Below, one piece after another: positions 25,069-42,556 of a stretch of 64,000 nt of DNA. This DNA is from an uncultured Anaerolinea sp. (GTDB taxonomy: Bacteria > Chloroflexota > Anaerolineae > Anaerolineales > UBA4823): positions 11,051-75,050 of the forward strand of contig CAZHFU010000001.1 of the NCBI GenBank assembly GCA_964531975.1. Direction: 5' to 3'. A program made the translations under genes and the position numbers. Position 1 is the first letter of the stretch. Each line of letters starts with the position of its first letter. Below the pieces are notes generated by a model that saw only the letters and a program-made list of their open reading frames with translations, searched no databases and was not told where the DNA came from.

Positions 25069-25899
25069 TCAGCCGCAGTTGTAATTGAATGGTTTTGGCC
25101 CGTCGGGGTCGCGCACCACCAGGCTAAGGGTAAGGGGTTGATCGAAGGTTGGGCCAACCCCAAACAGCCTGCCGGCGGCATCTTGCAGCAGCCATTGGCC
25201 AAGGTAATCGCCGGGGGTAAGCGGGGCCGCCAGGCTGAGATGAATGTCTAAAGTTTGCCCTGGCCCGGTTTCACCTGTAAAGTACTGCTGCTGTGGATTG
25301 CGCCAGTCCTCCCCGGACTGCCACACCAGGCTGTAAGATGTGTTCCAGGTGCAATCGCCAACGTTGCGGATGCGCCACACTTTGCCAAAGGCCGTGAGGG
25401 GCATGAGGGCGGTGTGATCGGAGATAGAGAGATGCCGTACAAACTCGGCGCGATTTGAGCAAGTTGATTGCGGGTTTGAACCTGGCCCGATGGGGGAGGG
25501 GGTGAAGGCCGGGGCGACCGGCGCGGCGGCCGTGGGATGGTTGGAGGTGGGCGGTGCGAGAGCGGCCTGCCCGGCAGCGGTGGGCCGGGGCGCGGTTGGA
25601 GTGAGCCGCGCAGCCGGGGGGGCGAACCTCGTCTCGTCTGCGCAGGGCGTCAGGAGGTTGCCAACCTTACACATTCCGCCGGTGGTTGAGGCGTTGGCGG
25701 TGGTAAAAGCATCTTGGGGAGAGGGGGCAGGCGGTTTGGGGTCATCGGCGGGCGAGGGGTGATTAAACAGGCCGCCGGGCTGCTGCATGGCGGCGCTTGT
25801 CCATCCCCCCGGCTGAGCAGTTGGGTCTGTGAGCGCGGCGGAAGAACAGGCCGCCAACGAACCGAGCGCCACGAGCAGCCAAAACAATCGTTTAACCAT
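25069..25899 (-). CDS. lipoprotein with NBR1-FW-like domain (paralogue 3)
   Basis: 276 aa. Lipobox SLAAC, a long Pro/Ala linker, then CSNRAEFVRHLSISDHTALMPLTAFGKVWRIRNVGDCTW. Confidence 0.8.
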   Translation of the reverse strand: MVKRLFWLLVALGSLAACSSAALTDPTAQPGGWTSAAMQQPGGLFNHPSPADDPKPPAPSPQDAFTTANASTTGGMCKVGNLLTPCADETRFAPPAARLTPTAPRPTAAGQAALAPPTSNHPTAAAPVAPAFTPSPIGPGSNPQSTCSNRAEFVRHLSISDHTALMPLTAFGKVWRIRNVGDCTWNTSYSLVWQSGEDWRNPQQQYFTGETGPGQTLDIHLSLAAPLTPGDYLGQWLLQDAAGRLFGVGPTFDQPLTLSLVVRDPDGPKPFNYNCG

Positions 25900-25963
25900 T
25901 CCCGCACCTCGAGTAAATTTTGGTCAACGCACCGGCGTCACGCGCCGGCATGCTTTAGCGTTG

Positions 25964-26668
25964 TCAGCCGCCGCCGCCGCAGAAGCCGCCATTGGGATAC
26001 TGCCCGCCGGCCACTTCTATCGAAACCCAAAAGGCGTTCTGTCCCTCCTTGCCGGTTCCGAAATAGGTTCCTGAAGGATCGCGGAACATCCAATTGCTTT
26101 TATAGGAGCCATCGGCTTCGGGGCAGGCGAAGGGAATAGAGATGTCCACTGTTTTTCCGGGCGGCACTTCTTGCCCCAGCAGCATCATTTCAACCAGGCC
26201 CAAGGGGTCCCCACCAACATACACTAATTGATAATCTTTTGTCCAGGTACAAGAGCCGATGTTTTTGAAACGCCAGGTTTTGATAAAGCTCGATTTGCTT
26301 TTTAGACGTGTGTTATCGGGGATATTGACATCGTCTACGAATTCAGCCGCATTTTCGCAATCAAGATTATCCTGGCGGATTTGATCGTTGATCTTTAAAG
26401 GCGTGGGCTGCGCTGGGGAGGCGGACTCTGGCGGAGGCAAAGGGAGAGACGCCGGCTGAGCGGCGGTGGGTTCCACCCTGCTCGCCGCCGGCGCAGTGGT
26501 GGGTGAGGGTTGGAAGGGCCGCCCGATGCCATGTTGGGCGGTGAGGGTTTGTACTGCCAGGGTGGCTTCCAGGCCTGGAATAGACGGTGGGGCTGTCTTC
26601 TCTCCACTGCATGCGGCTAAAGCCAGCCCCGCCAAAGTTACTAGTAACAGAAAGCGCATCGGTTGCAT
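25964..26668 (-). CDS. lipoprotein with NBR1-FW-like domain (paralogue 4)
   Basis: 234 aa. Lipobox ALAAC, a Pro/Ala linker, then CENAAEFVDDVNIPDNTRLKSKSSFIKTWRFKNIGSCTW...LVYVGGDPLG. Confidence 0.8.
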   Translation of the reverse strand: MQPMRFLLLVTLAGLALAACSGEKTAPPSIPGLEATLAVQTLTAQHGIGRPFQPSPTTAPAASRVEPTAAQPASLPLPPPESASPAQPTPLKINDQIRQDNLDCENAAEFVDDVNIPDNTRLKSKSSFIKTWRFKNIGSCTWTKDYQLVYVGGDPLGLVEMMLLGQEVPPGKTVDISIPFACPEADGSYKSNWMFRDPSGTYFGTGKEGQNAFWVSIEVAGGQYPNGGFCGGGG

Positions 26669-26790
26669 GGCAGGCTCCTCGGGTCAACGAATAAGGGGTT
26701 TCAATAATGGTTTGCGTACTGCTGATATTATACACCCATCTTTGCAGCAGGCAGCGTGTGCCATAAACAGCGGTAGAGCAGCAATTAGCA

Positions 26791-26829
26791 AGAGAGGGGG
26801 CAAGGCCGGTTGGCGCTTGCCCCCTCTCT
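26791..26829 (-). terminator. strong hairpin terminator closing the hydrogenase/FDH operon
   Basis: 14-bp perfect stem: AGAGAGGGGGCAAG (26791-26804) pairs with CTTGCCCCCTCTCT (26816-26829), with an 11-nt loop. It starts ~22 nt after the fdhA stop (26851). The U-tract on the minus strand is weak (TTGCTAATTG). Confidence 0.6.
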
Positions 26830-26850
26830 ACACATTTTATGAGGCGAGGA

Positions 26851-29628
26851 TTACCCTGCGCTCACTTTTACGGCGCAAATCTTGAACTCGGGTATCTTGG
26901 CGGTGGGGTCAAGGGCTGCCAGGGTGAGTTCGTTGGCGCAAGCTTCGGGGAAGTGGAAATTGGCGAAGACCATTCCGGGCGGAACCCGCTCTGTGACCCA
27001 GGCCTGCGCTTCGATTTTACCCCGGCGCGATTCCACACGCACAGGTTGTCCATTATCCAGGCGCAGATGGGCGGCGTCGCTGGGGTTAACTTCTATTAAC
27101 GCTTCTCCATAGACTTCCATCAGGCCCGCAGCGCGGCGGGTCATTTCGCCGCCGTGCCAATGGTACAAAACGCGCCCGGTGGATAGCAGCATGGGGTAGG
27201 CGTCGTCGGGCATCTCTTGCGGAGGAATATGTTCGATGGGGGCAAACTTGCCTTTGCCGCGTGTAAATTGGCCTACATGCAGAATGGGTGTGCCCGGGTG
27301 GGTGACATCTTTCACCGGCCAATGCAGGCGGTCGCCATTTTCCAGGCGCGGATAGGTGACGCCGGCGTAGGAGGGGGTGAGCGCGGCGATCTCGTTCAGC
27401 ATGGCGTCTGGGGCCGGGTAGACCCAACCAGCAAAGGGGGCCGATGGGTCTACCGTGCGGGTGGCGCTTTTTGCCAGGATGCGCTGGGCGATGGAGGCGA
27501 TGATCTGCCAATCGGGCAGCGCCTGGCCGGGAGGAGCCACGGCGGGGCGAACTAGCTGGATGCGCCGCTCGGTATTAGTGAACGTGCCATACTTCTCGGC
27601 GAAACTGGCCCCGGGCAGCAGCAAATCGGCATAGGCGGAGGTTTCGGAGGGGAAGATTTCTTGCAGGGCGATAAACTCGCATTCTTCCAGACATTGGCGA
27701 ATGTGCTGGCTGTTGGGGTCGCTCATCACCGGGTCTTCGCCCAAGATATAGAGGGCTTTGATCTTTCCGGTCTCGATGCCGGGGATCATTTCGGTCATAG
27801 TCAGGCCCACTTTATCCGGCAGGGAGACGCCCCAAGCGGCCTCAAATTTCTGACGAGACGCCTCTGCGGTGACGGGTTGATAACCGGCATAAACGTTCGG
27901 CAAGCCGCCCATGTCGCAGGCGCCTTGCACGTTGTTTTGTCCACGCAAGGGGTTCACGCCGCCGCCGGGAATGCCCAGGTTGCCAAGCAGCATTTGCAAG
28001 TTCGCCAGGTCCATTACATTGCGCACCCCCACAATGTGCTGGGTAATGCCCATCGCCCACATTACCGCCATGGGGCTGTTTAAGGCCAGGATTTCGGCGG
28101 CTTCGTAAAGTTTTTCCACCGGCACACGCGTAATGGCGCTTACGTTTTCAGGGGTGTATTCTTCCAGCACCGCTTGAAATTCCTCAAATCCCTCGGTGCG
28201 GGCATCGATGAAGGCCTGGTCTTGCCAGCCTTTCTTTAAAATGATATGCATGAGGCCGTTGATTAGAGGGATATCTGTGCCGGGGCGATGCCGCAAATGC
28301 AGGGTTGCAAATTCAGTAATATCGATGCGGCGGGGGTCGGCTACTACCAGTTTGACGCCGCGGCGAAGCACCGCCTGGCGGATCATTGCGCCGAACACGG
28401 GGTGTTGTTCGGTGGTATTTGAGCCAATGATGAACATGGAGGCGGCATGCTTAGCGATGTCTTCCATCGTGTTAGTCATTGCGCCCGAACCAAAGGAGGC
28501 GGCCAGACCGGCCACCGTGCTAGAGTGTCAGAGACGAGCGCAGTGATCGATATTGTTCGTACCGATGACTTGCCGCGCCAGTTTGTTCATCAGGTAATTT
28601 TCTTCGTTCAGACATTTGGCAGAGCAGAGCACTCCGATGCTATCGGGGCCATGTTGATCCCTGGCGCCGCCCAGTTTGTCGGCCATCAGGTTGAGAGCGG
28701 TATCCCAATCAATCGCCACCCAATCGCCGCGTCCATGGGGGCGGGGTGTGCCTTCGAGCAGGTAGCGGCGCGCCATCGGCTGGGTGAGGCGTTCGTGGTG
28801 GTGGATAAAATCGTAGCCGTAGCGGCCCTTGACGCATAAGTGATTGCCATTTACGGTTTCGCCAGGATGACTGGTGACCCGAATGACGCGCCCGCCGGGC
28901 ACATCGTCTTTCATGTTCAGGTCTAGCTGGCAGCCCACGCCGCAGTAGGTGCAAGTGGTGGTAACTTTGCGGTCGGCCTGGCCGGCAGACATTGACATTT
29001 TATTGTTGAGCGCGCCGGTGGGGCAGTAGGCTACGCACGCCCCGCACGATTCGCAGCGGGCGTCTAGTAAGGTTTGCCCGGCTCCTGCGGCCACATGTGT
29101 GCCGAAACCGCGCCCCGCCAAGGTCCACACAAAGCGGCCTTGCACTTCGGCGCAGGCGCGAATACAACGTGTACATACAATACATTTGTTTAGATCTACC
29201 CATAAAAATGGGTTGGGGTCGCTATCCACCACATGGATAGGGTGATCGAGCATATAGTCTTTTGGATCGAGGCCATAATAATGCACCCAGTGCATTAGTT
29301 CGGTTTCGCCCTGGCAATCATCGTAGCCCGCGTCGTAATAATTGGAAAGCAGCATTTTTAGGATGACCCGGCGCGAATCTGCCAGGTCTTCATTTTCGGT
29401 CGTGACTTGCATGCCCTCCTGAACCTCCAGGGCGCAGGAGGCCATCGGCGTGCGCCAACCTTTAACATCGACCACACACAGGCGGCAGCCGCCGTAGGGC
29501 GTCAGATCGGGGTGATCGCACAAAGTCGGTATGGTAATGCCCGCCGCTCTGGCGGCGCTTAGCACCGTGGACTTTGGTTCTACTTGGATTGTCTTACCGT
29601 CAATCGTCAATGTAACAAGTTTATCCAT
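26851..29628 (-). CDS. fdhA: selenocysteine-containing formate dehydrogenase alpha subunit (NuoG-type N-terminal Fe-S domain plus Mo/W-bis-PGD domain); UGA-Sec at 28528..28530
   Basis: Track ORFs 28528..29628 and 26851..28515 are in the same frame. The junction reads [29 protein letters not shown], the FDH active-site context. The N-terminus has a 2Fe-2S motif (CDHPDLTPYGGCRLC), two 4Fe-4S motifs (CIVCTRCIRAC, CESCGACVAYCP) and CTYCGVGC. The catalytic Arg context LRGQNNVQGACDMG is present. An AGGAGG RBS precedes ATG 29628. Confidence 0.88.
28498..28516 (-). promoter_or_regulatory. SECIS-like hairpin downstream of the in-frame UGA
   Basis: On the minus strand, 11 nt after the UGA: GGUGGCC (28516-28510), loop GGUCU (28509-28505), GGCCGCC (28504-28498). 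This gives a 7-bp stem including one G-U pair. The loop resembles the GGUC apical loop of the E. coli fdhF SECIS, as I recall it. Confidence 0.7.
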
Positions 29629-29722
29629 GGGACCTCCTAAAACACCGGATGAGTGAATTATATTGTATGTGACCTGGGAAGCCGGGGTTAGTGGTAAAGC
29701 TCCTAATAATAGAGAACAAATA

Positions 29723-30184
29723 TCATATTAGGATCAATTCTAAGGCTTGATCCAGGCGAGCTTGCGCGGTGGGACTAAGGCCGCGTTTGAAACCGAAGTT
29801 TTCGCCCTTAATGGACACCAGGCGTCCGGCGGGGCGGGATTGGAAGACCTGCTGAGTGATGGAAAGCAGCATTTCGGGGGTGAGGTGGTGGGTGAGAGGG
29901 CTGGTTTGTAAGGCCGGCTGCACCTCAACCACGCGTACGTCTTCCGCGTAAGCGCCGGTGTGGGCGTCTACAAAAATCACTTCATCATACGCGGCTATGT
30001 CTTCGCTCATTTCAGGGGTTAATTGGAGAACAAACCATAAGTCGGGGTCTAAGCCAATGGGGGAAAAGCCCTCTTCAACGGTAGAGCTGGGGCGGCCTAA
30101 ACGCTCGGCGATTTGCAGAAGAGCATACCAGGCCAATCCGTCGTCTTCGCGGTCGGGGTTGCCAAAACCAATAATCAGTTTCAT
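29723..30184 (-). CDS. hoxW: [NiFe] hydrogenase maturation endopeptidase
   Basis: N-terminus MKLIIGFGNPDREDDGLA (typical GNxxxxDDG protease motif), ~153 aa. I trimmed the start to ATG 30184; the track's 30286 adds 34 atypical residues. Confidence 0.85.
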   Translation of the reverse strand: MKLIIGFGNPDREDDGLAWYALLQIAERLGRPSSTVEEGFSPIGLDPDLWFVLQLTPEMSEDIAAYDEVIFVDAHTGAYAEDVRVVEVQPALQTSPLTHHLTPEMLLSITQQVFQSRPAGRLVSIKGENFGFKRGLSPTAQARLDQALELILI

Positions 30185-30347
30185 CGCAGCGTATTTATCC
30201 AGATGTGGAAAGCGGCGCAGGCCTATCGGTTGCCTGAACCACTTCCGCTCATTTCCATCGGTTTGCCGGAGTGATTGGCGAGACAAAACGAGTGGGGGCT
30301 GTTCAATATCTGGAAATTGAACAGCCCCGCGGGAAGGTTTTATGAAG

Positions 30348-31772
30348 TTATCGCGCCAGTTCGTCGATCACGCGCCCGGTGGGATCGAGCATTTCGATTT
30401 GGATCGGCATTTGACCAGCGGCATGGGTGGAGCAAGACAGGCAGGGGTCGTAGGCGCGCACCGCCGCCTCAACCCGGTTGAGCATGCCTTCGTGGATCTT
30501 GGGGCCGGTGATGTAGGTTTTGGCGACGCTATCTACGGCTTCGCACATGGCCCAGTTGTTATGGCCGGTGGCTACAATCAGGTTAACTCGTTCGAGCTGG
30601 CCTTGGTCGTTAGCCCAGTAGTGATGGAACAGGGTTCCGCGCGGCGCTTCCAACACCCCTACGCCCACGCCCTGGTAATTTTGCACCGTGTTGAGAATAT
30701 CGGTGCTGAGCGTATCGGGATCGTTCAAGATCGCCTCGATGCGTTCGAGGGCGAAGATCACTTCGATCAGGCGGGCATAGTGGTAGTAGAGCGTATTTTC
30801 CACCGGGCGGCCTGGATTGAGCGCCTTGAATTTTTGCAGCTCGGCGTTCGCCAGGGGTGTGTCGATGCTGTCGCAGGCGTTCAGGCGGCCCAGCGGCCCA
30901 ACCCGGTAGACGCCTTGCGGGAAGCCCATCTTCTTGTAGTAGGGGAACTTGAGGTACGACCAATCTTGCACCCGTTCTGCAATGTAATCCAGGTAGTTAT
31001 CGGCGTTGAATTTCTCTAGCTGAACACCATTTTGATCAACCAGGCGCACATCGCCCTGGTAAAGCTCCAGGCTGTTGTGGGGGGTTACCAGGCCCATATA
31101 GCCGGTAGAGAAGACGGCGAACTTATTGATATCTTCGGCGTTCTTTTCCGCCCAGTCTTTGATAATCTGGACGCCGATTTGGGCAGTGGCAATGTTTTCC
31201 GCCACGTCGGCCAGGAGAAGGTCGCGGTCGGCCTGGCTGAGGGCCTTGTTGACCCCCCCGGTGATGGCGAAGTTGGGGTGAATGCGCCGCCCGCCCAAAA
31301 CGCGGATGACGTTTTGGCCGAATTTGCGCAGGCCGATGGCCTTTTTGGCAAGCTCGGGGTTAATGGAGGCCAGGCCAATCACATTGCGCACGGCCGGGTC
31401 GGCGTCGAAGCCCAGCAGCAGATCGGGGCCGGCCAGCTCGAAGAAGTGCATGCCGTTGGACTGCACAATCTGGCCCATGTGCATCAGCTCGCGCAGCAAG
31501 TTGGCCGGGCGCGGGGGTGGGCAGCCGTACACCTCATCGGCAGCCTTGGCCGCCGCTAGGTGATGGCTCACCGGGCAGATGCCGCAGATGCGAGGGGTGA
31601 TGGAGGGCATTTCGATGACCAGGCGGCCTTCGCAAAACTTTTCGAAGCCGCGGAATTCGTTAATATGCAAGTAAGCATGATCAACCTGGCCGGCGTCATT
31701 CATGCGAATGGTGACCTTGGCGTGCCCTTCGATACGGGTCACGGGTTCAATGGTAATTTTTTGCATCGTCAT
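30348..31772 (-). CDS. hoxH: [NiFe] hydrogenase large subunit, group 3 (Hox-type)
   Basis: The N-terminal Ni-binding motif is [10 protein letters not shown]. The C-terminal motif DPCLSCSTH is followed by a 24-aa extension that serves as the endopeptidase substrate. PVTRIEGH lies near the N-terminus. Start ATG 31772 has an AAGGTGG RBS; the track uses GTG 31781. Confidence 0.92.
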
Positions 31773-31803
31773 AATTTCCACCTTCTCTCAATACCAGTCA
31801 GGT

Positions 31804-32346
31804 TTAGTGCCAGTGGAGCAGCTCGCCCTTGAGTTCGGGCTTGCGACCTTGGGCCAGTTCGCTTAACACATAGAAGATAACATCGGCTTCGGGCGGGCAG
31901 CCCGGCACACTAATGTCTACCGGAACGACTTCGTGAATGGCGCGCACCGGGGTCATTTCGGCTAATTCAGGATCGGAAGGGATTTGCCCCACGCCGTCGG
32001 TGCTTTCTGTCTCCAGGTAAGCGCGGTTGAGCGCTTCTTGCATGCCACAGAAATTGCGCAGCGCAGGCACACCGCCAAACACGGCGCAGTCACCTAAGGC
32101 GACCAGGATCTTGGAGCGGGCGCGCATTTTGCGGGCCACTTCTTCGTTGGCGGAATTGTTGATCCCGCCTTCGAGAATGCCCACGTCCACCCCGTCTTCG
32201 TCCGGCTCTTTCAAATCGGTGATGGGGGTAGCGCGTATATCGGCCAATGCAGCCACTAACAGCAGACGTTCATCCATATCAAGCAGCGACATATGGCAGC
32301 CGGCGCATCCGGCCATCCAGTCGCTTGCAATTTTAGGTTTTGCCAT
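31804..32346 (-). CDS. hoxY: [NiFe] hydrogenase small subunit, group 3 (single proximal 4Fe-4S type)
   Basis: 180 aa. The Cys ligand contexts are GCAGCHMS, GDCAVFGG and PGCPP, and there is no Tat signal. Confidence 0.9.
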   Translation of the reverse strand: MAKPKIASDWMAGCAGCHMSLLDMDERLLLVAALADIRATPITDLKEPDEDGVDVGILEGGINNSANEEVARKMRARSKILVALGDCAVFGGVPALRNFCGMQEALNRAYLETESTDGVGQIPSDPELAEMTPVRAIHEVVPVDISVPGCPPEADVIFYVLSELAQGRKPELKGELLHWH

Positions 32347-32372
32347 GATTTCGGTATCCTTCCTGTTTACCG

Positions 32373-34316
32373 TTAATTGATTTGCAGCGCTACCGGCGAC
32401 ACACGGCGCAGCAAAGCGTTCTTCCAGTCGTCGCGGGTAGGAATATTAAGCATCATGCTCAGGTTGGCGAGCGTTTGGGCGGTGGTGGGCGCATCGTCGG
32501 GAGCTTGAATAACGGCCCTGGCAGCTTGCAAACGTCCATCGAGGTTGAGGTAATGGCCGGTTTGTTCATTCCAGGCGACGGTAGGCAGCACCACATCGGC
32601 CATTTCCGTGGCAGGCGAGGCATAAACAGCCTGAACCACTTTGAAGGGCGCTTTTTCGATGCGGCCCAGCAAGCGGGAGGTAGCGTAGTCGTCGGCCAGG
32701 GCCAGGAACACGGCCTGCTGTCCGTTAATTGAAAAGACTTTATCCAGGCCATATTGTGCAGCAGCCAGGCTGTTGGCTTCGCCCTTCATGCTCAAGAGGG
32801 CGCAAGTTTTGCCCAGGGCGCGCAGATCTTCAACCAGGCCAAACACCGAGCGCAGCGCGTTCATATCGGTTTGAGCGGTGAGGCCCTTGCCGTAGATGAC
32901 CACCGGGCGTTGGGCGGCGAAGATAGCCGCGCCCAGTTTCTCGGCGGTGGTTTGGGCTTCTGCCGCACAACCGGCGGATAGATTTTTGATGTATTGGCGT
33001 ACGCTTTCGATGACGGCTGAATCTTGCCCGGCTTCGGGTTCTAACACCATGCGGGCGACTGCCTTCATGCTGTTCTTGCCGGGGTCAATCACGGCCAGGG
33101 GTACATTGTTGGGCAGCAATCGCTTGATGAAGAAGCCGGCCACCTGGTGGCTGGAGGTTAAGTCGGCGCCAATGACGACCGCCATATCGGTATCTTTCAA
33201 ACTATCGAGGCGGCTTTCGTAGGGGCAGCCCAGGGCTTCAGCCATGCGAGACGCCCCGGCGGTGGGGTAGCCTTCTTCTATGCTGGTGACCATGGCGCTG
33301 CCCAATCCTTCGGCGAACAGATTGCGGAAGGCGAAGAGGGCTTCTGCGGGTAGGCGAGTGGAGGCGATGGCCGCCACGCCATCGCCATTCCGCCCGGCCA
33401 GGGGGGCCAGCCTGGCGGCTACCAGGCTCATGGCTTCATCCCACGTGGCGGGCTGCAGCGCCCCATCCTTACGCACCATGGGGGTGGTAATGCGCTTGCG
33501 CATGTCTTTCATGGGGTCAAAGCGACCTTTTTCGCATATTAACCCCTGGTTGAGGGCTGCGTCCCAATCGCCTTCGATGCGGGTGAGCTGGTTGTCGCGC
33601 GTCCATAGGGTGACCCCGCAGCCCACCGAGCAACCGACGCAGGTGGAGCTTTCGGCTTCCCAATTTCTGCGATGGCCTTTGTAGGCGCTGGCGCGGTCGA
33701 TGATGGCGCCGGTGGGGCACACCTGGGCGCACATGCCGCACGAAATGCACGACGATTGCCCTAAAGGCAGACCGAAATCTGCGGTGATGAGCGTGTCGGT
33801 TCCGCGTTCGCTGGCGGTTAAGGTGAAGTTGCCCACCAGGTCGGAACAGGCGCGGATGCAGCGGCGGCAAAGGATGCAGCGGTTGTGATCCAGCACCAGG
33901 TCGGCGTGGCTGGCGTCTAGTTCGAACTTCTTCCACTGGGGCGGGAAGTCCCAGGAGGTCATGCCTTCATGGTAGGCGGCATTTTGCAATTCGCAATCGC
34001 CGCCAGAGACCTGGCAGAAGGGGCAGAAGTGATTGCGTTCGCTAAACAGCATATCCAGGATGAACTTGCGCGAAGTGCGCAGGTTTACGGTGTCGGTCTC
34101 AACTACCATGCCATTTGCTACCGGAAGTGTGCATGAGGCGGTGGGAGCGCGCCAGCCTGCAATCTCTACGATGCACAAGCGGCAGCCGCCAAAAGGCTTC
34201 ACTGCGGGGTGGTCGCACAGGGTGGGAATTTCGATGCCGGCCTGGCGGGCAGCTTGAAGAACGGTGGTTCCTTCAGTGGCTTCAATTACTTTACCGTTAA
34301 TGGTTATTTGAACCAT
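32373..34316 (-). CDS. NuoG-like Fe-S subunit in the HoxU position (degenerate formate-dehydrogenase-like C-terminal domain)
   Basis: ~647 aa. It has 2Fe-2S (CDHPAVKPFGGCRLC), a His-ligated 4Fe-4S (HFCPFCQVSGGDC), two 4Fe-4S (CILCRRCIRAC, CISCGMCAQVCP) and CVGCSVGC...C. A molybdopterin-oxidoreductase-like domain follows but lacks the CARLUH active-site segment. Start ATG 34316 follows a GAAGGAG RBS. Confidence 0.85.
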   Translation of the reverse strand: MVQITINGKVIEATEGTTVLQAARQAGIEIPTLCDHPAVKPFGGCRLCIVEIAGWRAPTASCTLPVANGMVVETDTVNLRTSRKFILDMLFSERNHFCPFCQVSGGDCELQNAAYHEGMTSWDFPPQWKKFELDASHADLVLDHNRCILCRRCIRACSDLVGNFTLTASERGTDTLITADFGLPLGQSSCISCGMCAQVCPTGAIIDRASAYKGHRRNWEAESSTCVGCSVGCGVTLWTRDNQLTRIEGDWDAALNQGLICEKGRFDPMKDMRKRITTPMVRKDGALQPATWDEAMSLVAARLAPLAGRNGDGVAAIASTRLPAEALFAFRNLFAEGLGSAMVTSIEEGYPTAGASRMAEALGCPYESRLDSLKDTDMAVVIGADLTSSHQVAGFFIKRLLPNNVPLAVIDPGKNSMKAVARMVLEPEAGQDSAVIESVRQYIKNLSAGCAAEAQTTAEKLGAAIFAAQRPVVIYGKGLTAQTDMNALRSVFGLVEDLRALGKTCALLSMKGEANSLAAAQYGLDKVFSINGQQAVFLALADDYATSRLLGRIEKAPFKVVQAVYASPATEMADVVLPTVAWNEQTGHYLNLDGRLQAARAVIQAPDDAPTTAQTLANLSMMLNIPTRDDWKNALLRRVSPVALQIN

Positions 34317-34364
34317 ATGATGCACTCCTTCGACGTGATAAACACTTTGATTAATTTGTTTTAT

Positions 34365-36014
34365 TTAAGCGTGTTGAGGCACGGCCTCTTCGGGCGTCAT
34401 GGCGCATACACCCGTGGGGCAAACGCCCAGGCGAATGTGCGCTTCCACTTCGGTGCGAAAATGCTTGAGCATATCTTTAATCGGGGTGGAGGCGGTTTGG
34501 CCCAGGCCGCAGTTGGAAAGCCGTTCCATCTGCTCAATAATGGGGTTCAGGCTGCCCAAGTCTTCCAGCGTGGCCTGGCCTTCGGTGATGGCCTTAACAA
34601 TATCGAAATTGCGCTGCGTGCCGATGCGGCACGGGGTGCATTTACCGCAGCTTTCAAAGCGGAAGAATTGCAGCAAAGTTTTCACCAGGTCTACCACGCA
34701 GGTCTCGTCATTGCAGATGAGCAGCGCCCCCGAACCAAGCGAAACGCCGGCTTTGCGGTACGATTCGAAGTCCATGGGGGTATCTTGTAAGGCGGCGGGA
34801 ATAAGCGAGCCGCTTGAGCCGCCGGTCTGCGCCAGTTTAAAGGGCGAGTCGCCTTTCATGCCTTTGGCGTAGATGTTGATGACTTCGCGCAAGGTAATGC
34901 CCATGGGGACTTCGATCACGCCGGTGTTGTTGACATTGCCGAAGATCGTGTATACCTTTGTACCTGGGCTGGAAGGGGTTCCAAACTGGCGATACCAGGC
35001 TCCTCCATGACGAAGGATGGGCGGTACGTTGGCGAGGGTTTCGACATTGTTTACCAGGGTGGGTTTACCCCATAAACCATGGGTGGTGGGGTAAGGCGGG
35101 CGAGAACGCGGTTCGCCGCGCTTGCCTTCAATCGATTCGATGAGGGCGGTTTCTTCGCCGCAGACGTATGCGCCGGCCCCTGAATGGACATGCACATGGA
35201 AGTTGAACCCTGAATCGAAGATGTTTTCGCCGAGCAGGCCGTAGGCCTCTGCCTGTTGAATGGCGTGAGCAAAACGCTGCTGCGCCAAGAGATATTCGCC
35301 GCGAATGTAGATATAGCCTTCATCGGCCCCAACACTGTAGCCGGCGATGATGATCGCCTCTAGCACGGCGTGGGGGTCGCTTTCCAAAAGAACGCGGTCT
35401 TTGAAAGTGCCGGGTTCGGATTCGTCGGCGTTGCAGATGACATATTTCTTGCTGCCTGGCGTGCCGGCCACAAACGACCACTTGCGTCCCACGGGGAAGC
35501 CTGCTCCGCCGCGGCCTTGTAGGCCAGAAGCATTGAGTTCATCAATGACTTCCTTGGGGGTCATTTGAGTCAGCGCCTTTGCCAGGGCCTCGTAGCCACT
35601 GTTGGCGATGTAATCGTCTATGTTTTCGGGGTCAATTTTACCGGCGCGTTCGAGGATGATCCGTTGTTCGGCGGGCATTGAACCTTTGCGAGCGTTTAGC
35701 CAGGCAATTCGCCCGGTGAGTTCTCGCTTCGGGGCCAGCAGTTCCTCGGCCACACGACCCTTATAGAGATGTTCTTCGACGATGCGGGTCACATCTTCCG
35801 GTTTGATGGGGCCATATACCACCGCTTCGGGATAAATAATCACCATGGGGGTGGCGTCGCTGCGTCCTACGTCTACGATGGTGGAAAGGGCGATTTCGTC
35901 GCTCAGGCCCAGGCGGTCGATTTCAGACTCTAAGCGGCGGAATACCTCTTCTGAGCCACGCAGCTGACTGCGCGGATCGTTTGAGACTAACACCATTGCG
36001 CGTTTGATTTTCAT
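34365..36014 (-). CDS. hoxF: NuoF-like NAD(H)/FMN/4Fe-4S diaphorase subunit (module 1, no C-terminal ferredoxin domain)
   Basis: It has GLQGRGGAGFPVGRKW (FMN), CNADESEPGTFKDR, ESCGKCTPCRIG and SNCGLG. The N-terminal thioredoxin-like domain has no Cys ligands. Start ATG 36014 has an AAGGAG RBS 5 nt upstream. Confidence 0.9.
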   Translation of the reverse strand: MKIKRAMVLVSNDPRSQLRGSEEVFRRLESEIDRLGLSDEIALSTIVDVGRSDATPMVIIYPEAVVYGPIKPEDVTRIVEEHLYKGRVAEELLAPKRELTGRIAWLNARKGSMPAEQRIILERAGKIDPENIDDYIANSGYEALAKALTQMTPKEVIDELNASGLQGRGGAGFPVGRKWSFVAGTPGSKKYVICNADESEPGTFKDRVLLESDPHAVLEAIIIAGYSVGADEGYIYIRGEYLLAQQRFAHAIQQAEAYGLLGENIFDSGFNFHVHVHSGAGAYVCGEETALIESIEGKRGEPRSRPPYPTTHGLWGKPTLVNNVETLANVPPILRHGGAWYRQFGTPSSPGTKVYTIFGNVNNTGVIEVPMGITLREVINIYAKGMKGDSPFKLAQTGGSSGSLIPAALQDTPMDFESYRKAGVSLGSGALLICNDETCVVDLVKTLLQFFRFESCGKCTPCRIGTQRNFDIVKAITEGQATLEDLGSLNPIIEQMERLSNCGLGQTASTPIKDMLKHFRTEVEAHIRLGVCPTGVCAMTPEEAVPQHA

Positions 36015-36041
36015 GCTCACTCCTTTACCCGTTCTACACCG

Positions 36042-36539
36042 CTAGACGTATTTGCTCAAGATTTCAGGCAGCTGATCTGGCGTGACATTGCCATACATAT
36101 CTTCGTCAATCACTACCACCGGGCCAATGCCGCACACCCCCAGGCAGCTGGTCGTTACCAGGGAGAAGCGGTTATCCGGTGTGGTTTCGCCGGCTTTCAG
36201 GGCGAGGGCGTCTTGCAGGGCTTGCCAAACCTGGCGGCCGCCCATGACGTGGCATGGGGCGCTTTCGCAAAACAGTACCACATGCCGCCCGCGAGGCTTG
36301 GTGGAGAGCATATGATAGAAGCTTGCCAGGCCGTAGAGCAGGCTGGTTTGCACGTGCATCCCGTCTTTGCTCGAAAGCAGTTGACGGCGCATTTCGACCA
36401 GCGCTTCACCAGGAATGTACCCGTAAGTGTTGTTGATCTCTAGCAAGATCGGAATGATCGAATCGTGGTGGCGGCCATTCTTTTCGATGGCGGCTTCTAC
36501 AATCGCAGTGAATCCATCTTTGGTCAACATATCGGTCAT
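36042..36539 (-). CDS. hoxE: NuoE-like 2Fe-2S subunit (module 1)
   Basis: The Cys ligand contexts are CESAPCHVMGG and SCLGVCGIGPVV. I trimmed the start to ATG 36539, because AGGAGG lies 6 nt upstream and the track start at 36647 overlaps the preceding gene. Confidence 0.88.
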   Translation of the reverse strand: MTDMLTKDGFTAIVEAAIEKNGRHHDSIIPILLEINNTYGYIPGEALVEMRRQLLSSKDGMHVQTSLLYGLASFYHMLSTKPRGRHVVLFCESAPCHVMGGRQVWQALQDALALKAGETTPDNRFSLVTTSCLGVCGIGPVVVIDEDMYGNVTPDQLPEILSKYV

Positions 36540-36549
36540 GTGCATCCTC

Positions 36550-38358
36550 CTAAAGAGCCACAGTGAGAGGTTCCGAGACAACTTTAACCGCGTTAAAGTT
36601 GCAGACCTGCAAACAAATGCCACAGCGGATACAGGTATTGATATCAATTACGTGCGTATGGCGGCGTTCGCCGGAAATGGCTTCCACCGGGCAGTTGCGG
36701 GCGCATACGGTGCAGCCGGTGCAGGCTTCCTCGGAGATATCATAGCGAATGAGGGGCTTGCAAACCTTGGCCGGGCAGTATTTGCCGTAGATATGCGCTT
36801 CGTACTCGTGGCGGAAATGTTTAAGGGTGCTGACAACCGGGGCAGGCGCACCCTGGCCCAGGCCGCACAAACTGTTCTTGCTCACTTCGTGGCACAATGT
36901 TTCGAGCTTTTCGATGTCGCCATGTTCGCCATCGCCGTTGCAAATCTTTTCGAGCAGATCGAGAATACGGCGTGTGCCGATGCGGCAAGGGGTGCACTTG
37001 CCGCAGCTTTCATCTTGGGTGAATTCCATGAAGTAGCGGGCGATATCCACCATGCAGGTTTCGTTATCCAAGATCACCAGGCCGCCGGAACCCATCATGG
37101 CGCCTGCAGAGATGAGCGATTCATAATCAATTTGGTAATCGAGGTATTGCTCTGGCAGACAGCCGCCCATTGGGCCGCCGATTTGGGCGGCTTTGAAGCC
37201 TTTATCATCCACAATGCCGCCGCCCACATCGTACACGACTTCGCGCAAGGTGATGCCCATGGGAACTTCGATCAGGCCGGTGTTGCGCACGTCGCCGGCG
37301 ATGGCGAAGGTCTTTGTGCCTTTCGAGCGTTCGGTTCCCATCGATGCAAACCATTCGGGGCCGCGTAAAATGATTTGCGGGACGTTGGCGTAGGTTTCGA
37401 CGTTGTTAACGTTCGACGGCTTTTTCCACAACCCGGCCTGGGCGGGGAAGGGCGGGCGCGGACGGGGTTCGCCGCGGCGGCCTTCGATCGAGGCGATGAG
37501 GGCGGTTTCTTCGCCGCACACAAAGGCGCCTGCGCCCATGCGCACTTCCAGGTCGAATGAGAAATTGCTGCCCATGATGTTTTCGCCCAGCAAGCCCAGC
37601 TCGCGCGCCTGGCGAATGCCGATCCTCAGGCGTTCAACGGCGATGGGATATTCGGCTCGACAGTAGACGAATCCCTGGCTGGCTCCGATGGCGTAGGCGG
37701 CGATGGTCATGCCTTCGATGACCGAATGCGGATCGCTTTCAAGGACGCGCCGGTTCATGAACGCGCCGGGGTCGCCTTCATCGGCGTTGCAGATGACGAA
37801 CTTCTGATCGCCGGGGTTTTGGCGGCACAGCGACCATTTTCTCCCCGTCGGGAACCCGGCTCCGCCGCGCCCGCGCAAGCCGGAACTGCTGACGGTCTCG
37901 ATCACGGTTTCGGGGGTCATCTCGTTGAGCGCCTTCGCCAACGCCATGTAGCCGTCTTCGGCGATATATTCTTCGATATTGGTGGGATCGATTTTGCCGC
38001 AGTTGCGCAGCACGATACGCACTTCTTTTGGCTTAGGCGGGCCAAGCTCTTCATCGGCGGCGGCGGCGGCTTTTAACAGGAATTTACTCACCACCCGCCC
38101 TTTGAGGAAATGTTCTTCCACCAGGTAGGGGATGTCATCTGCAGAGAGATTGATGTAATGCACGTTCTCCGGGTAGACGACCAGGTCTGGCCCGAATTGA
38201 GTGGGTTCGCCCAGGCGAGAGGTTTCCAACACCTGGACCTCGGCAATCAGACCCTGCGCCACCAACTCGTCGTGCAGCGCGTCGATGATCTCGTACGCGC
38301 CTCGCTCCAAACATTCTGGGTCTACCGATACGAGTACATGTGAACGATAAAATGGCAT
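36550..38358 (-). CDS. NuoF/HydB-like subunit with C-terminal 2x[4Fe-4S] ferredoxin domain (module 2, bifurcating-type architecture)
   Basis: 602 aa. It has GLRGRGGAGFPTGRKW, CNADEGDPGAFMNR, ESCGKCTPCRIG and SLCGLG. The C-terminal tail carries CTGCTVCARNCP and CIRCGICLQVC. Confidence 0.88.
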   Translation of the reverse strand: MPFYRSHVLVSVDPECLERGAYEIIDALHDELVAQGLIAEVQVLETSRLGEPTQFGPDLVVYPENVHYINLSADDIPYLVEEHFLKGRVVSKFLLKAAAAADEELGPPKPKEVRIVLRNCGKIDPTNIEEYIAEDGYMALAKALNEMTPETVIETVSSSGLRGRGGAGFPTGRKWSLCRQNPGDQKFVICNADEGDPGAFMNRRVLESDPHSVIEGMTIAAYAIGASQGFVYCRAEYPIAVERLRIGIRQARELGLLGENIMGSNFSFDLEVRMGAGAFVCGEETALIASIEGRRGEPRPRPPFPAQAGLWKKPSNVNNVETYANVPQIILRGPEWFASMGTERSKGTKTFAIAGDVRNTGLIEVPMGITLREVVYDVGGGIVDDKGFKAAQIGGPMGGCLPEQYLDYQIDYESLISAGAMMGSGGLVILDNETCMVDIARYFMEFTQDESCGKCTPCRIGTRRILDLLEKICNGDGEHGDIEKLETLCHEVSKNSLCGLGQGAPAPVVSTLKHFRHEYEAHIYGKYCPAKVCKPLIRYDISEEACTGCTVCARNCPVEAISGERRHTHVIDINTCIRCGICLQVCNFNAVKVVSEPLTVAL

Positions 38359-38785: not shown

Positions 38786-39406
38786 TTAGCTGCCAGACTG
38801 GCCTGAGCCAATGCGATTGGCGCGGGTCAGATGGGGGTTGAGGTTCGTGCGAATTCGACTTACACCTTCTTGAAGGGTGGTGCGCAGGAAGGCTAGCACG
38901 TCGGGATTAGTTAGCAGATCGGGGTCGCCCAAAGCCAGTTTAATTTCAGCGTCGTCAAAGATGAAAGGCTCCAGGGCCTGGCCGGCGGCGGTGCGGGCCT
39001 GGTATTCCAGCCGCCAGTGAATTTCAGGGTGGCCCACCACCAGGGTGAGCATTAGCCCGGCCACATCGCCCAAGGGCATGCGATCAATGTGGGTATGCTG
39101 GAAATCTACGGCCACGGTGGCGCCCTTGCCCAGGCGCGAGTTGATCGACATTTGACCGCGGCACATTTCGGCGGCGGCTTTTAGAAGCGGCAGACCCAGG
39201 CCCACCTTACGAGTGGTGCGGCTGGTGACAAATGGGTCGAGGGCGGCGCGGGCCGTTTCTTCGCTCATCCCCCGCCCATTATCCTGGACGCGCAGCGTTA
39301 GTCGGTCGGCCAACAAATCCTCTTCGATGAAGATTGTGATTTGGGTGGCGCGCGCCGCAACGCTGTTCTCGGCAATATCCAGGAGGTGCAGGGACAATTC
39401 TTTCAT
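38786..39406 (-). CDS. stand-alone GHKL (histidine-kinase-like) ATPase embedded in the diaphorase module
   Basis: It has an N-box HLLDIAENSVAA, a G1 box VQDNGRGM and a G2 box GLGLPLL. There is no DHp/phospho-acceptor His domain. I trimmed the start to ATG 39404-39406, 5 nt after the upstream stop. Confidence 0.8.
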   Translation of the reverse strand: MKELSLHLLDIAENSVAARATQITIFIEEDLLADRLTLRVQDNGRGMSEETARAALDPFVTSRTTRKVGLGLPLLKAAAEMCRGQMSINSRLGKGATVAVDFQHTHIDRMPLGDVAGLMLTLVVGHPEIHWRLEYQARTAAGQALEPFIFDDAEIKLALGDPDLLTNPDVLAFLRTTLQEGVSRIRTNLNPHLTRANRIGSGQSGS

Positions 39407-39410
39407 GCGC

Positions 39411-39923
39411 TTATTTTGGTTCCTGAACTTTACGCAGAATTTGGGGGAATTTGTTTGGTTTGACGCGCCCTTGAGCTTCGTCATCCACTACCACAACCGG
39501 GGCCTGGCTGCATGCTCCCACGCAGCGGCAGACTTCGAGGGTAATTAGCCCATCGGCGGTGGTCTGTCCTATGTCGATGCCCAGGGCTTGCTTGGCTTTT
39601 TCGATTAGCTGCGGTGTGCCGCCGACATAGCAGGCGGTTCCCATGCAGAACTTGATGACGTGCTTGCCGCGCGGCTGCGTGGTGAAGAAGGAATAGAAAG
39701 TCACCACCCCATGCACAGAGCTGACGGGGACGTGCAGCTTCTGGGCCACGTAAGCTTGCATCGGTTCGGAAATGTGGCCGATGCGATTTTGTAGATCATT
39801 GAGTACCACCATAACTGCACCGGGTAAATGCTCGTTTTCCGCGAGTACCTGGTCGATGATGGCGCGCTGCTCGGGCATGCTAATCGGGTCGTTTACGGGA
39901 ATGTTATCTAGTTGAAGTTTCAT
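39411..39923 (-). CDS. NuoE/HydC-like 2Fe-2S subunit (module 2)
   Basis: 170 aa. The Cys ligand contexts are CMGTACYVGG and CRCVGACSQAPVV. It is the first gene after the AT-rich spacer. Confidence 0.88.
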   Translation of the reverse strand: MKLQLDNIPVNDPISMPEQRAIIDQVLAENEHLPGAVMVVLNDLQNRIGHISEPMQAYVAQKLHVPVSSVHGVVTFYSFFTTQPRGKHVIKFCMGTACYVGGTPQLIEKAKQALGIDIGQTTADGLITLEVCRCVGACSQAPVVVVDDEAQGRVKPNKFPQILRKVQEPK

Positions 39924-40087: not shown

Positions 40088-40828
40088 TTATTCAGTGGCG
40101 CGCAATGAGCGTCCTTTGACGCCCATCACCGCCCATTCGATATCTTGCACGGTGAGCGCTTCCACTTGGTAAAGGTTTACAGATTGAAAATCCGCGGCGT
40201 AATGGACATCTCCGCCTAACACAAGCGGGTAACGCTGAATTTGCGGGAAGCGCCGGCGCGCTTCGAGCGGAGGGCAGCGGCGCGAAACCTCCAGCACTTC
40301 GACCTCCAACCCAGGGGGGACAAACCCCAAGGTGGGCAGTAATCCAAACGCCTGGCGGTCTACATGGGCGGGGATGGGCAGCCCACCCAGGGCGCGCACC
40401 CCACTTACGGCTTGTTCGAGCGTCATGTGGCAAGATACGATCAGGAGGCGTTTTTCTTCGCCCAGCAGATCGCCGGTGTAATCGACCAGGTATTGCTCGC
40501 CAATCTTTTCGGGGTCGTTTTCCAGGTGGGGCAATTGGGCGTCTACGATGGCTTGCCAGGCGGCCAACTGGCCGATTGTATCGAACAAGCATAGTAAATG
40601 CACATCCTCGCGGGTTTGTAGCTCCATGCCGGGGAGCACCAACAGGGGTGTGCCTTGGGCGGCTTCCATCACCGCGGCGCAGTTGCCGGTCGCGTTGTGG
40701 TCGGTAATAAAGATGCAATCTAAACCAGTCTCTAAAGCGCGCGTAACGATCACGGGGGGAATCATTTCCACCCCGGCGCACGGGGATAACACCGTATGAA
40801 CGTGCAGCTCGATCCGCGCTGTGATCAT
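40088..40828 (-). CDS. PHP-domain phosphoesterase
   Basis: 246 aa. It has the N-terminal metal motif ELHVHTVLSPCA, then ITDHN and later His/Asp motifs typical of the PHP fold. Confidence 0.8.
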   Translation of the reverse strand: MITARIELHVHTVLSPCAGVEMIPPVIVTRALETGLDCIFITDHNATGNCAAVMEAAQGTPLLVLPGMELQTREDVHLLCLFDTIGQLAAWQAIVDAQLPHLENDPEKIGEQYLVDYTGDLLGEEKRLLIVSCHMTLEQAVSGVRALGGLPIPAHVDRQAFGLLPTLGFVPPGLEVEVLEVSRRCPPLEARRRFPQIQRYPLVLGGDVHYAADFQSVNLYQVEALTVQDIEWAVMGVKGRSLRATE

Positions 40829-40834
40829 GGCCTT

Positions 40835-41182
40835 CTAACCGGCTGGAAGGCCCATCTCGTAAAGCCGACCCACCACTTCATATAATGTCAGGGGGGTAGA
40901 CAGCAAGGTCACTTCTTGATCGGCGGCCTTGGCTAACACGTCGGCTTCGGGCACGCCGTTTTCGGTAATGATCACGGCGCTTTGTTCGAGCAGCGCCGCG
41001 ACCGCCACCACATTGATGTGAGATTGCAGCGTGACCCACACCCCGCCGTTTTTAGCGCCCGCCATAACGCAGCTAAGCAGATCGGAGGCGTAGCCCGAGG
41101 TGGGGAAGGATTGGTTGAAATCTTGCTGATTGGTGAGAACTTTGAGGTCTAAAGCTTCGATTATATTTTGCAGAGTAATCAT
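40835..41182 (-). CDS. DRTGG-domain protein
   Basis: 115 aa. It matches the DRTGG-family pattern (ASDLLSCVMA...VWVTLQSHINVVAVAAL...VTLLSTPLTLYEVVGRLY). Its ATG overlaps the upstream TAA by 1 nt. Confidence 0.8.
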   Translation of the reverse strand: MITLQNIIEALDLKVLTNQQDFNQSFPTSGYASDLLSCVMAGAKNGGVWVTLQSHINVVAVAALLEQSAVIITENGVPEADVLAKAADQEVTLLSTPLTLYEVVGRLYEMGLPAG

Positions 41183-42183
41183 TAGTCGTCTTCTCCACTG
41201 AAATGAGAACTTTCGCGAAAACTTTCATCCGGTTGCAGATAGATTTTCATTTCTAACTTTGTGCCTTTGCCTGCGGTGGATTGAAGGCTCATTTTATCGA
41301 CGCAGCGTTTAATGTTGAGCAGGCCCATGCCGGCCCCAAAGCCTAATTCGCGGATTTGCTCCCCGGCGGTGGAATAGCCCGCTTGCATGGCAAGGGGAAC
41401 ATCGCTAATGCCGGGGCCTTCATCGATGGTTTGCATTAGGATTCGGTGGGGTTCAATTTCGACTCGGATGATGCCGCCGGAGGTGGTGTGAATGATGAGG
41501 TTCATTTCGGCTTCATAGATGGCAATGCCGCAGCGGCGTGCAATTTGCGGGTTCGCGCCCAGGCGCAGCAGCGCGCGCTTAATGTTGCTAGAGGCATCGC
41601 CGCCATGCAAAAAGTCGCCGTTTTTGATGCGGTAGCGTAAGATCAGGCTGGTGCGGTCGGATCGTATGTCTTCGAACAGGTGGCTGGCGCGGTAACGGCG
41701 CACTTCTTCGGTTTGATAGTCGGTTTGCAAGGCGTTCAGCAGGCCGCGGGTTATGTCGCCCTTGGTAATCATGCCCACCAGGGCGCCTTCGTGGTTAATT
41801 ACTGGCAGGCGGCCCACTTTGCGCCGTCCGAAGGTCTCCATCGCTTCCACGGCGGCGTCAAATTCCTGAATGGTGATCAGTTCGGAACTCATATATTGCG
41901 AGATAGGGGCATTAAGATCATTCGCCTGCATGGCGCGAATCAGATCTTCCAGGCTAACCACGCCACACAGCTTTCCTTTGCATACCACCGGTAGGCCTGA
42001 AATGCGGCGCTGTCGCAGCGTTTCGAGGACGTCGTTCATCGTATCGGTTGGCGACGCAGTGCTGAGGTCGGTAGACATGACCTCGCGCACTTTGAGGTCG
42101 TAAGCTAACTCTTCAACACGACTGATGAGGTTGGCGTCTTCATCCGTAACAATTCGCTTACCGGAGGGGGATAAGGCAGCCAT
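41182..42183 (-). CDS. CBS-pair plus GHKL Ser-kinase-like (RsbW/SpoIIAB-type) protein
   Basis: Two CBS motifs lie in the N-terminal half. The C-terminal half has the N-box YEAEMNLIIH, G1 IDEGPGI and G2 GFGAGMGL. I trimmed the start to ATG 42183, directly after the upstream stop at 42185. Confidence 0.8.
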   Translation of the reverse strand: MAALSPSGKRIVTDEDANLISRVEELAYDLKVREVMSTDLSTASPTDTMNDVLETLRQRRISGLPVVCKGKLCGVVSLEDLIRAMQANDLNAPISQYMSSELITIQEFDAAVEAMETFGRRKVGRLPVINHEGALVGMITKGDITRGLLNALQTDYQTEEVRRYRASHLFEDIRSDRTSLILRYRIKNGDFLHGGDASSNIKRALLRLGANPQIARRCGIAIYEAEMNLIIHTTSGGIIRVEIEPHRILMQTIDEGPGISDVPLAMQAGYSTAGEQIRELGFGAGMGLLNIKRCVDKMSLQSTAGKGTKLEMKIYLQPDESFRESSHFSGEDD

Positions 42184-42184
42184 G

Positions 42185-42556
42185 TTATTCTCCCAGGCAT
42201 TCGGGCAGATTGTTCTCGAAACTAGGCAGCCCGGCGCGATAGAGGCGGCCACAGACCTCGAACATGCCATAGGGGGTGGTGATGAGAGGAATGCCTTCGG
42301 CCTCGGCTAGCTCGATGGTTTCTTTGGGGGGCTGTTTGCCGCGCACAAACACAATGGCGCGCACATCGGCCATTTGCGCGGTGCGTACTACCTGCGGATT
42401 GCATAGTCCGGTGAGCAAGACAGCTTCGGGTTGAATGGAGGCCAGCACATCGCTCATTAAATCCGCTCCGCAGCCCCCGGCCACCTCCTGTTCAAGAGAA
42501 ACTTGAGTGGTAAAGCATGTTCCGCGAACGATTTCGATAACATCTTTGATTTTCAT
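42185..42556 (-). CDS. DRTGG-domain protein
   Basis: 123 aa. GADLMSDVLASIQPEAVLLTGLCNPQVVRTAQMADVRAIVFVRGK...IPLITTPYGMFEVCGRLY. Confidence 0.8.
   Translation of the reverse strand: MKIKDVIEIVRGTCFTTQVSLEQEVAGGCGADLMSDVLASIQPEAVLLTGLCNPQVVRTAQMADVRAIVFVRGKQPPKETIELAEAEGIPLITTPYGMFEVCGRLYRAGLPSFENNLPECLGE

Follow-up and report, generated by a model that had tools for sequence, protein, structure and literature searches.

A formate dehydrogenase gene of an uncultured Anaerolinea divided by an in-frame UGA that probably encodes selenocysteine

A 64,000-nucleotide stretch of DNA from an uncultured Anaerolinea sp. (contig CAZHFU010000001.1 of assembly GCA_964531975.1; hereafter the window) carries on its minus strand the sequence of a formate dehydrogenase (FDH) alpha subunit gene, fdhA, which appears in the list of open reading frames (ORFs) as two separate products of 366 and 554 residues. 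Both ORFs lie in one frame, and the gap between them consists of a UGA (28530-28528) and four codons (12 nt) encoding HSST. The question raised by this locus is whether the UGA ends translation, leaving a dead gene or two shorter ones, or is read through, and if so as what. We conclude, with a probability of roughly 0.93, that fdhA is a single 925-residue selenocysteine (Sec)-type FDH gene, in which the UGA encodes Sec by means of a hairpin that follows it in the mRNA. The two 'ORFs' are an artefact of stop-codon-based gene calling.

Translation of positions 29700-26851 in a single frame showed the in-frame UGA as the sole interruption, and joining the parts (366 + 1 + 4 + 554) gives the 925 residues. 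The minus strand at this point reads ATC GAT CAC TGC GCT CGT CTC TGA CAC TCT AGC ACG GTG GCC GGT CTG GCC, exactly as quoted in the initial annotation of this DNA, whose further statements, that the two ORFs are 12 nt apart in the same frame, that the 'start' of the second is an internal GTG and that the downstream half contains LRGQNNVQGACDMG, were likewise borne out by the ORF list and the translation. This GTG is the Val codon of VAGL and lies inside the hairpin. Around the fdhA TGA the frame is free of stops for 399 codons on the upstream side and 558 on the downstream side; no comparable TGA occurs elsewhere in the window. At the 5' end of the gene, an AGGAGG ends 4 nt before the ATG at 29628, and the only public copy of the gene with the exact 554-residue product, on a 13-kb Logan contig (L081, SRR10083296) where it is also split into 366 and 554 residues, has the identical start.

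The joined protein is continuous in its domains as well as in its frame. It comprises, in order, a NuoG-like N-terminus with 2Fe-2S and 4Fe-4S domains, a Mo/W-bis-pyranopterin catalytic domain and a dinucleotide-binding domain, with Pfam matches to Fer2_4, Fer4_Nqo3, Molybdop_Fe4S4 and Molybdopterin. The last of these profiles is divided across the UGA: the first ORF ends with profile positions 1-81 and the second begins with 97-352. With Cys placed at the UGA, the protein scored 785.7 bits against the NCBIfam equivalog for formate dehydrogenase subunit alpha (TIGR01591; cutoff 666.25), covering profile positions 1-672 of 672. By BLASTP it is 38% identical to Escherichia coli FdhF over the whole catalytic region (E = 7e-169); the FdhF query agrees with 1AA6 at every position (100% identity), and residue 140 of 1AA6 is given as X. 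In this alignment the UGA falls on residue 140, the next His on His141 and the Arg of NPLRGQNNVQG on Arg333, and these positions are Sec367, His368 and Arg562 in the window protein. The correspondence that the initial annotation had given, a Sec140-His141 pair in the same context and Arg333 in the RGQNNVQG motif, thus matches residue for residue. A comparison with Sec- and Cys-type FdhA and FdhF had been suggested as a check; the UGA falls on the Sec of FdhF, and in the relatives described below its place is taken by TGA or a Cys codon only.

We then asked how the UGA position behaves among relatives. A search of a 5.8-billion-protein database could not by itself separate a Sec gene from a pseudogene, since it returned Cys-type full-length relatives only: each of the 120 top-ranked ones is a Cys form at the active site, and the likely cause is that Sec-type genes are cut in two by gene callers. 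The question was settled by a DNA-level locus scan with one genome per species, which gave 80 loci from Anaerolineae, Thermoflexales and other Chloroflexota at 62-73% identity. The window's own species was not among them, and the best match stood at 73-74%. The homologous codon was read straight from the DNA of these loci, in a set of 82 genes (81 relatives and the window). Among the relatives the codon is TGA in 61 genes (60 loci), TGC in 15 and TGT in 5, so that 60 of the 80 species have TGA and 20 have a Cys codon. All 82 genes have 500 or more open codons past this point. Against its nearest relatives the window gene shows ~75% identity after the UGA and ~71% before it, and because the downstream part is at least as conserved as the upstream part, we take it to be under purifying selection. 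The Cys-type orthologues are contiguous genes. On a midpoint-rooted neighbour-joining tree of the proteins the Sec and Cys forms are interleaved, with about 9 switches by parsimony (counts from this tree are approximate). Among bacterial selenoproteins FdhA is the most widespread and the most prone to replacement of Sec by Cys, with nearly half of all conversions of this kind that have been detected (PMC1794560); the mixture of Sec and Cys forms seen here is therefore the expected one. One related locus has two Sec-type fdhA paralogues ~7 kb apart (L071:3680 and L071:11099), and the hairpin is identical in both.

The hairpin is the second line of evidence from the relatives. The peptide that follows the Sec or Cys residue, H-S-S-T-V-A-G-L-A, is kept whichever of the two is present. 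The protein code alone thus accounts for part of the hairpin, and any test for RNA-level selection must use synonymous sites. Counting from the U of the UGA as 1, the conserved stem pairs positions 16-21 with 27-32 around a loop at 22-26. This stem is formed in 62 of 62 TGA genes (the window included) and in only 2 of 20 Cys genes, and the loop is GGUCU in every TGA gene, compared to seven variants in the 20 Cys genes. No variation is seen at third-codon positions 21, 24 and 27 of the TGA genes, where the Cys genes have 1.0-1.7 bits of entropy. RNAalifold predicted the identical six pairs.

Furthermore, the stem covaries. Pair 18-30 joins the wobble bases of a Val and an Ala codon; in the TGA genes it is G-C in 45, C-G in 13 and A-U in 4 and never unpaired, with at least 8 changes by parsimony on the neighbour-joining tree, while in the Cys genes it is paired in only 35%. 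Pair 20-28 needs 4 changes on the same tree; it shows two C-G to U-A changes that alter two residues jointly (Ala to Val and Ala to Thr), and there are two U-G intermediates. The Sec set had a covariation score of 0.236, a value that none of 500 shuffles reached (0.127 +/- 0.010), and 23 doubly changed cells where shuffles gave 5.7 +/- 2.0; 91% of the pairings are formed, compared to 18-57% when the partners are slid. The Cys set showed no covariation beyond its shuffles (287 of 500 as high). The hairpin is maintained by RNA-level selection, and in the TGA genes only. The codons on either side of the UGA are also constrained: every one of the 62 TGA genes has CUC or CUU as the Leu codon before it (28531-28533), a codon that ends in G in 12 of 20 Cys genes (mostly CUG or UUG), and the His codon after it is CAC in all 62 and CAC or CAT in Cys genes. 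This suggests selection on the UGA context in its own right, apart from the hairpin.

The initial annotation had described a 7-bp hairpin, GGUGGCC-GGUCU-GGCCGCC, 11 nt past the UGA. Its position, loop and six inner pairs are conserved, and it is part of the minimum-free-energy fold of a 66-nt region. However, the seventh, outer pair (15-33), although G-C in the window, is paired in only 40% of TGA genes, and the conserved element is the 6-bp stem, which begins 12 nt past the UGA with its loop at 18 nt.

This element resembles known bacterial selenocysteine insertion sequences (SECIS). In E. coli fdhF, whose UGA region as used here matched 5,420 of 5,426 E. coli genomes and is annotated there as fdhF and selenocysteine-containing, GGUCU also occupies positions 22-26 after the UGA, on V-A-G-L codons. 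The reading of a SECIS-like hairpin immediately 3' of the UGA is thus upheld in both spacing and loop position. The two elements also differ: U17 is bulged in the E. coli SECIS, whereas the stem described here runs through 6 bp without a break and its U17 pairs with A or G, and the E. coli element has a long lower stem for which no conserved counterpart is present here. In other bacteria the common core is a 5/6-bp apical hairpin (PMC4607533), and the distance from UGA to loop is 16-37 nt (PMC10778597); the window hairpin has its loop within this range, with G and U in it. A local search with the Rfam model SECIS_3 (RF01989) gave E = 4.5e-6 to 8.9e-6, matching the apical stem-loop and the coding flanks (UGACAC ... 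AUGAC). Judged by these likenesses, the hairpin would work like SECIS_3 elements while not being a formal member of that Rfam family.

Taken this way, the locus calls for a textbook selenoprotein mechanism with a standard conserved SECIS, not a new mechanism; the gene itself is newly recognised and unannotated. The 6-bp hairpin with its GGUCU loop would form in the mRNA during translation and, by analogy with the E. coli and Moorella systems, would be bound by SelB together with Sec-tRNA(Sec) and GTP. The SelB complex would then compete with release factor 2 and bring Sec to the UGA, and Sec367 would serve as the active-site metal ligand. On the same analogy, selABCD would be expected elsewhere in the genome and selenium at residue 367. 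The proposal of the initial annotation, one Sec-containing enzyme of ~925 residues as opposed to a pseudogene or two genes, finds its support in the continuity of the domains, the equivalog score, the FdhF alignment, the conservation of TGA and the selection on the hairpin.

Several observations weigh against this conclusion. First, the single-sequence folding energy of the 66-nt region is unremarkable (z = -0.97), a measure that is uninformative for a short GC-rich hairpin; the significance of the hairpin comes from the comparative data alone. Second, the full-length match to SECIS_3 reached 32.5 bits, below the gathering score of 63, and the lower helix of the model is unmatched (non-canonical positions); at gathering thresholds Rfam found tRNA-His alone in the 64-kb window and no SECIS. 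Third, searches for tRNA-Sec, selA, selB and selD gave no hit in the window or in the 10-kb flanks of fdhA at the 80 related loci. The tRNA search used ARAGORN on the window and 1.5 Mb of related loci, and the protein search used tblastn with unverified E. coli SelA, SelB and SelD probes; it returned nothing at E <= 1e-5 in the window or related loci, and relaxing the cutoff to E <= 10 brought up no meaningful match in the window. As far as the window and these 10-kb flanks go, the sel genes are not linked to fdhA in this lineage. In favour of the conclusion, single-cell genomes of Anaerolineales have been reported to encode both Sec-annotated FDHs and selenocysteine-specific elongation factors (Fullerton and Moyer 2016, PMC4959059), and the same study lists a SelB gene together with a Cys-type FDH for Anaerolinea thermophila. 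The A. thermophila locus in our set (L036) has TGC, in agreement. The lineage at order level, the enzyme and the Sec/Cys mixture are the same as here; the assignments there are based on annotation, and SECIS elements and covariation are not described in the parts of that paper used here.

That no Sec machinery was found in the window bears most directly on the possibility that the UGA is read through without Sec, whether by Cys-tRNA(Sec) at low selenium, by near-cognate Trp or Cys insertion, or in a lineage that no longer uses selenium to decode UGA. The base after the UGA is C in all 62 TGA genes, and UGA-C is a weak termination context, which would suit such read-through. However, a strict GGUCU hairpin is what SelB-dependent recoding predicts, and it would have no role in SECIS-independent read-through; moreover, the lineages that leave Sec switch to TGC or TGT and lose the hairpin. 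We therefore regard read-through of this kind as very unlikely.

Slightly less probable again is a pseudogene, in which a nonsense mutation changed TGC or TGT to TGA in a Cys-type fdhA and translation ends at ...HCARL. Twenty related species do have Cys codons at this point, the closest full-length proteins in the database are all Cys forms, and a window lacking Sec machinery fits. Against this, the TGA is shared by 60 other species, each with at least 500 open codons downstream, the downstream part is as conserved as the upstream part, and the catalytic His and Arg are intact. Selection on the synonymous sites of the hairpin in TGA genes only is also not expected of a dead gene.

A further reading, a 366-residue Fe-S protein followed by a separate catalytic subunit initiated at GTG 28515, we consider highly improbable. 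Standard gene calling yields exactly this split, on the public Logan contig as well, but the break falls within one Pfam Molybdopterin domain, the metal-ligand residue would be lost and the catalytic His would lie in an untranslated spacer. The Cys-type orthologues are contiguous across this point; the GTG encodes the conserved Val in VAGL and is preceded by coding sequence, not by a ribosome-binding site. A sequencing or assembly error, or a reassigned code with UGA as a sense codon (table 4 or 25), has a negligible chance of being correct, as an independent public assembly has the identical 554-residue product and split, 60 other species share the TGA, and UGA ends 12 of the 52 long ORFs in the window, of which one is the fdhA artefact and the 11 others are ordinary stops, with no other in-frame UGA candidate in the 64 kb. 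The shared TGA, the open frames and these ordinary stops rule out a nonsense mutation private to the window, as they do a sequencing error or a reassigned code. The features of the locus are collected in Table 1.

Table 1. Coordinates of fdhA, its recoding site and its upstream region, in window positions
Feature	Position	Strand	Basis or description
fdhA coding sequence, read through UGA	26851..29628	minus	925 codons + stop; translation
Upstream ORF of split fdhA	28528..29628	minus	366 aa, ATG start; ORF list
Downstream ORF of split fdhA	26851..28515	minus	554 aa, GTG start; ORF list
In-frame UGA, predicted selenocysteine 367	28528..28530	minus	aligns to X140 (Sec) of E. coli FdhF 1AA6
His368 codon CAC	28525..28527	minus	catalytic His adjoining Sec; aligns to His141 of FdhF
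Arg562 codon in NPLRGQNNVQG	27943..27945	minus	catalytic Arg; aligns to Arg333 of FdhF
Conserved predicted SECIS apical hairpin	28499..28515	minus	6-bp stem, loop GGUCU 28509-28505; comparative set, covariation, RNAalifold
7-bp version of hairpin, GGUGGCC-GGUCU-GGCCGCC	28498..28516	minus	outer G-C present in window, not conserved
Rfam SECIS_3 (RF01989) full-length match	28475..28533	minus	sub-threshold, 32.5 bits
fdhA ribosome-binding site AGGAGG and ATG start	29638-29633 and 29628-29626	minus	sequence; Logan contig has identical start
TATAAT hexamer in 94-nt hoxW-fdhA spacer	29657..29662	minus	sequence; not supported as promoter
Operon upstream of fdhA	29723-38358	minus	in order: HydB-like 602 aa, NuoE-like 165 aa, HydB-like 551 aa, HydA/NuoG-like 650 aa, NiFe small + large, maturation protease

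What kind of enzyme is it? The best end-to-end matches of FdhA in the PDB are FdsA-type proteins (9wxb_B, 715 bits; 6tg9_A, 706 bits), and the catalytic part also aligns with 7qv7, the FdhF subunit of HDCR, and with 1aa6, the E. coli FdhF (497 bits). E. coli FdhF (1AA6/1FDO) shares the equivalents of Sec140, His141 and Arg333 but is without the ~220-residue N-terminal NuoG-like Fe-S region that the window protein carries. The FdsA-type NAD-dependent FDHs (Rhodobacter capsulatus FdsA 6TG9/6TGA; 9WXB) are the closest solved structures, Fe-S N-terminus included (706-715 bits), and like the window fdhA they have NuoF- and NuoE-like partner genes in the same operon. These FdsA-type enzymes have Cys at the active site, in contrast to the predicted Sec of the window protein, and the partner flavoproteins in the window are nearer to subunit B of the 7T2R NiFe hydrogenase and to FeFe HydB chains than to FdsB. 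By its sequence, then, fdhA appears to encode the catalytic subunit of a cytoplasmic, NuoG-fused (FdsA/Bfu-type) FDH with a Mo- or W-pterin site.

The genes upstream of fdhA had been named 'hox', after NAD-reducing hydrogenases, and this naming did not hold up. The NiFe large subunit scored 572 bits against 7t2r_D and 427 against that of the NAD-reducing hydrogenase 5xf9_D, the 602-residue flavoprotein is an end-to-end match to HydB 7t2r_B (841 bits), and the 551-residue flavoprotein matches the same chain without the C-terminal ferredoxin domain. The cluster is probably better described as NiFe-HydABCSL (NiFe-Bfu) type, after PDB 7T2R. The 165-residue NuoE-like gene sits between the two flavoprotein genes, in a gap at 36020-36550. 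Homologues of HydB/BfuB, the NuoE-like and HydA-like subunits and the NiFe small and large subunits of the Bfu enzymes (Schut et al. 2022, PMC9304861; Feng et al. 2022, PMC8880783) are found in this operon, and FdhA itself has a BfuA-like N-terminus and pterin site. The Bfu survey lists Fdh-, NiFe- and FdhFeFe-type enzymes (PMC9304861); in the parts of that survey used here, no functional type is given that combines Fdh with NiFe in one cluster and has two HydB-like genes.

Both flavoprotein genes stand beside fdhA in 63 of the 80 relatives, and the hydrogenase module does so in 25, either upstream or downstream of fdhA. From this gene order, with the flavoproteins and the NuoE-like gene accompanying fdhA and the hydrogenase on either side, we tentatively suggest that Sec-FdhA might be one of two interchangeable modules, the other being NiFe HydA-S-L, that dock on a shared flavin core of HydB/HydC type. 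We consider this unlikely. If true, it would make the complex a NiFe-based counterpart, in Anaerolineae, of the clostridial FdhFeFe-Bfu: a soluble, possibly bifurcating formate/H2/NAD(P)H/ferredoxin enzyme.

With respect to transcription, the spacer between the upstream protease gene and fdhA is 94 nt long, and the TATAAT hexamer reported in it is present at 29662-29657. Its proposed role as a separate fdhA promoter was not supported: the hexamer has no -35 partner, a scan of 26600-30400 returned 0 sigma-70-like sites where 2.5 are expected by chance, and no TATAAT was seen at the equivalent hoxW-fdhA junctions that could be parsed in relatives, where start-finding was crude and several loci failed. 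Within the operon, a perfect hairpin of 13 bp with a T-rich run behind it (30295-30328, minus strand) lies between the hydrogenase large-subunit and protease genes. It resembles an intrinsic terminator or attenuator and precedes both the protease gene and fdhA.

Other genes flank the operon on the same strand. Directly downstream of fdhA (25069-26668) are two genes for proteins of 234 and 276 residues with signal-peptide- or lipoprotein-like N-termini; both match Pfam N_BRCA1_IG (PF16158) and have no NCBIfam match, and homologues follow fdhA in about 10 related loci. Upstream of the operon (38786-39484 and 40088-42270) are genes for a protein with a histidine-kinase ATPase domain (232 residues), a PHP-type metallohydrolase-like protein (246 residues) and a protein with CBS and anti-sigma-F-like kinase domains (362 residues), which may form a conserved regulatory set. 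The HydABCSL operon of A. mobile includes a hisK gene, according to a figure legend (PMC9304861).

The practical value of these results is a correction of annotation, and they add little beyond known biology. Sec-type genes make up three quarters of the species sampled at the DNA level and are missing among the top-ranked full-length proteins; because all 120 of these are Cys forms, other Sec-type fdhA genes of Anaerolineae are probably likewise stored as fragments. Surveys of the FdhA family based on protein databases would thus carry a systematic bias against Sec-type genes. The 82-gene set also provides a clean natural experiment, in which V-A-G-L-A is encoded with a strict hairpin where the active-site codon is UGA and with drifting synonymous sites where it is Cys, and it could serve as a benchmark for SECIS predictors. 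For the organisms themselves, the consequence of the split genes would be that formate metabolism in Anaerolineae is under-called, or its genes flagged as pseudogenes.

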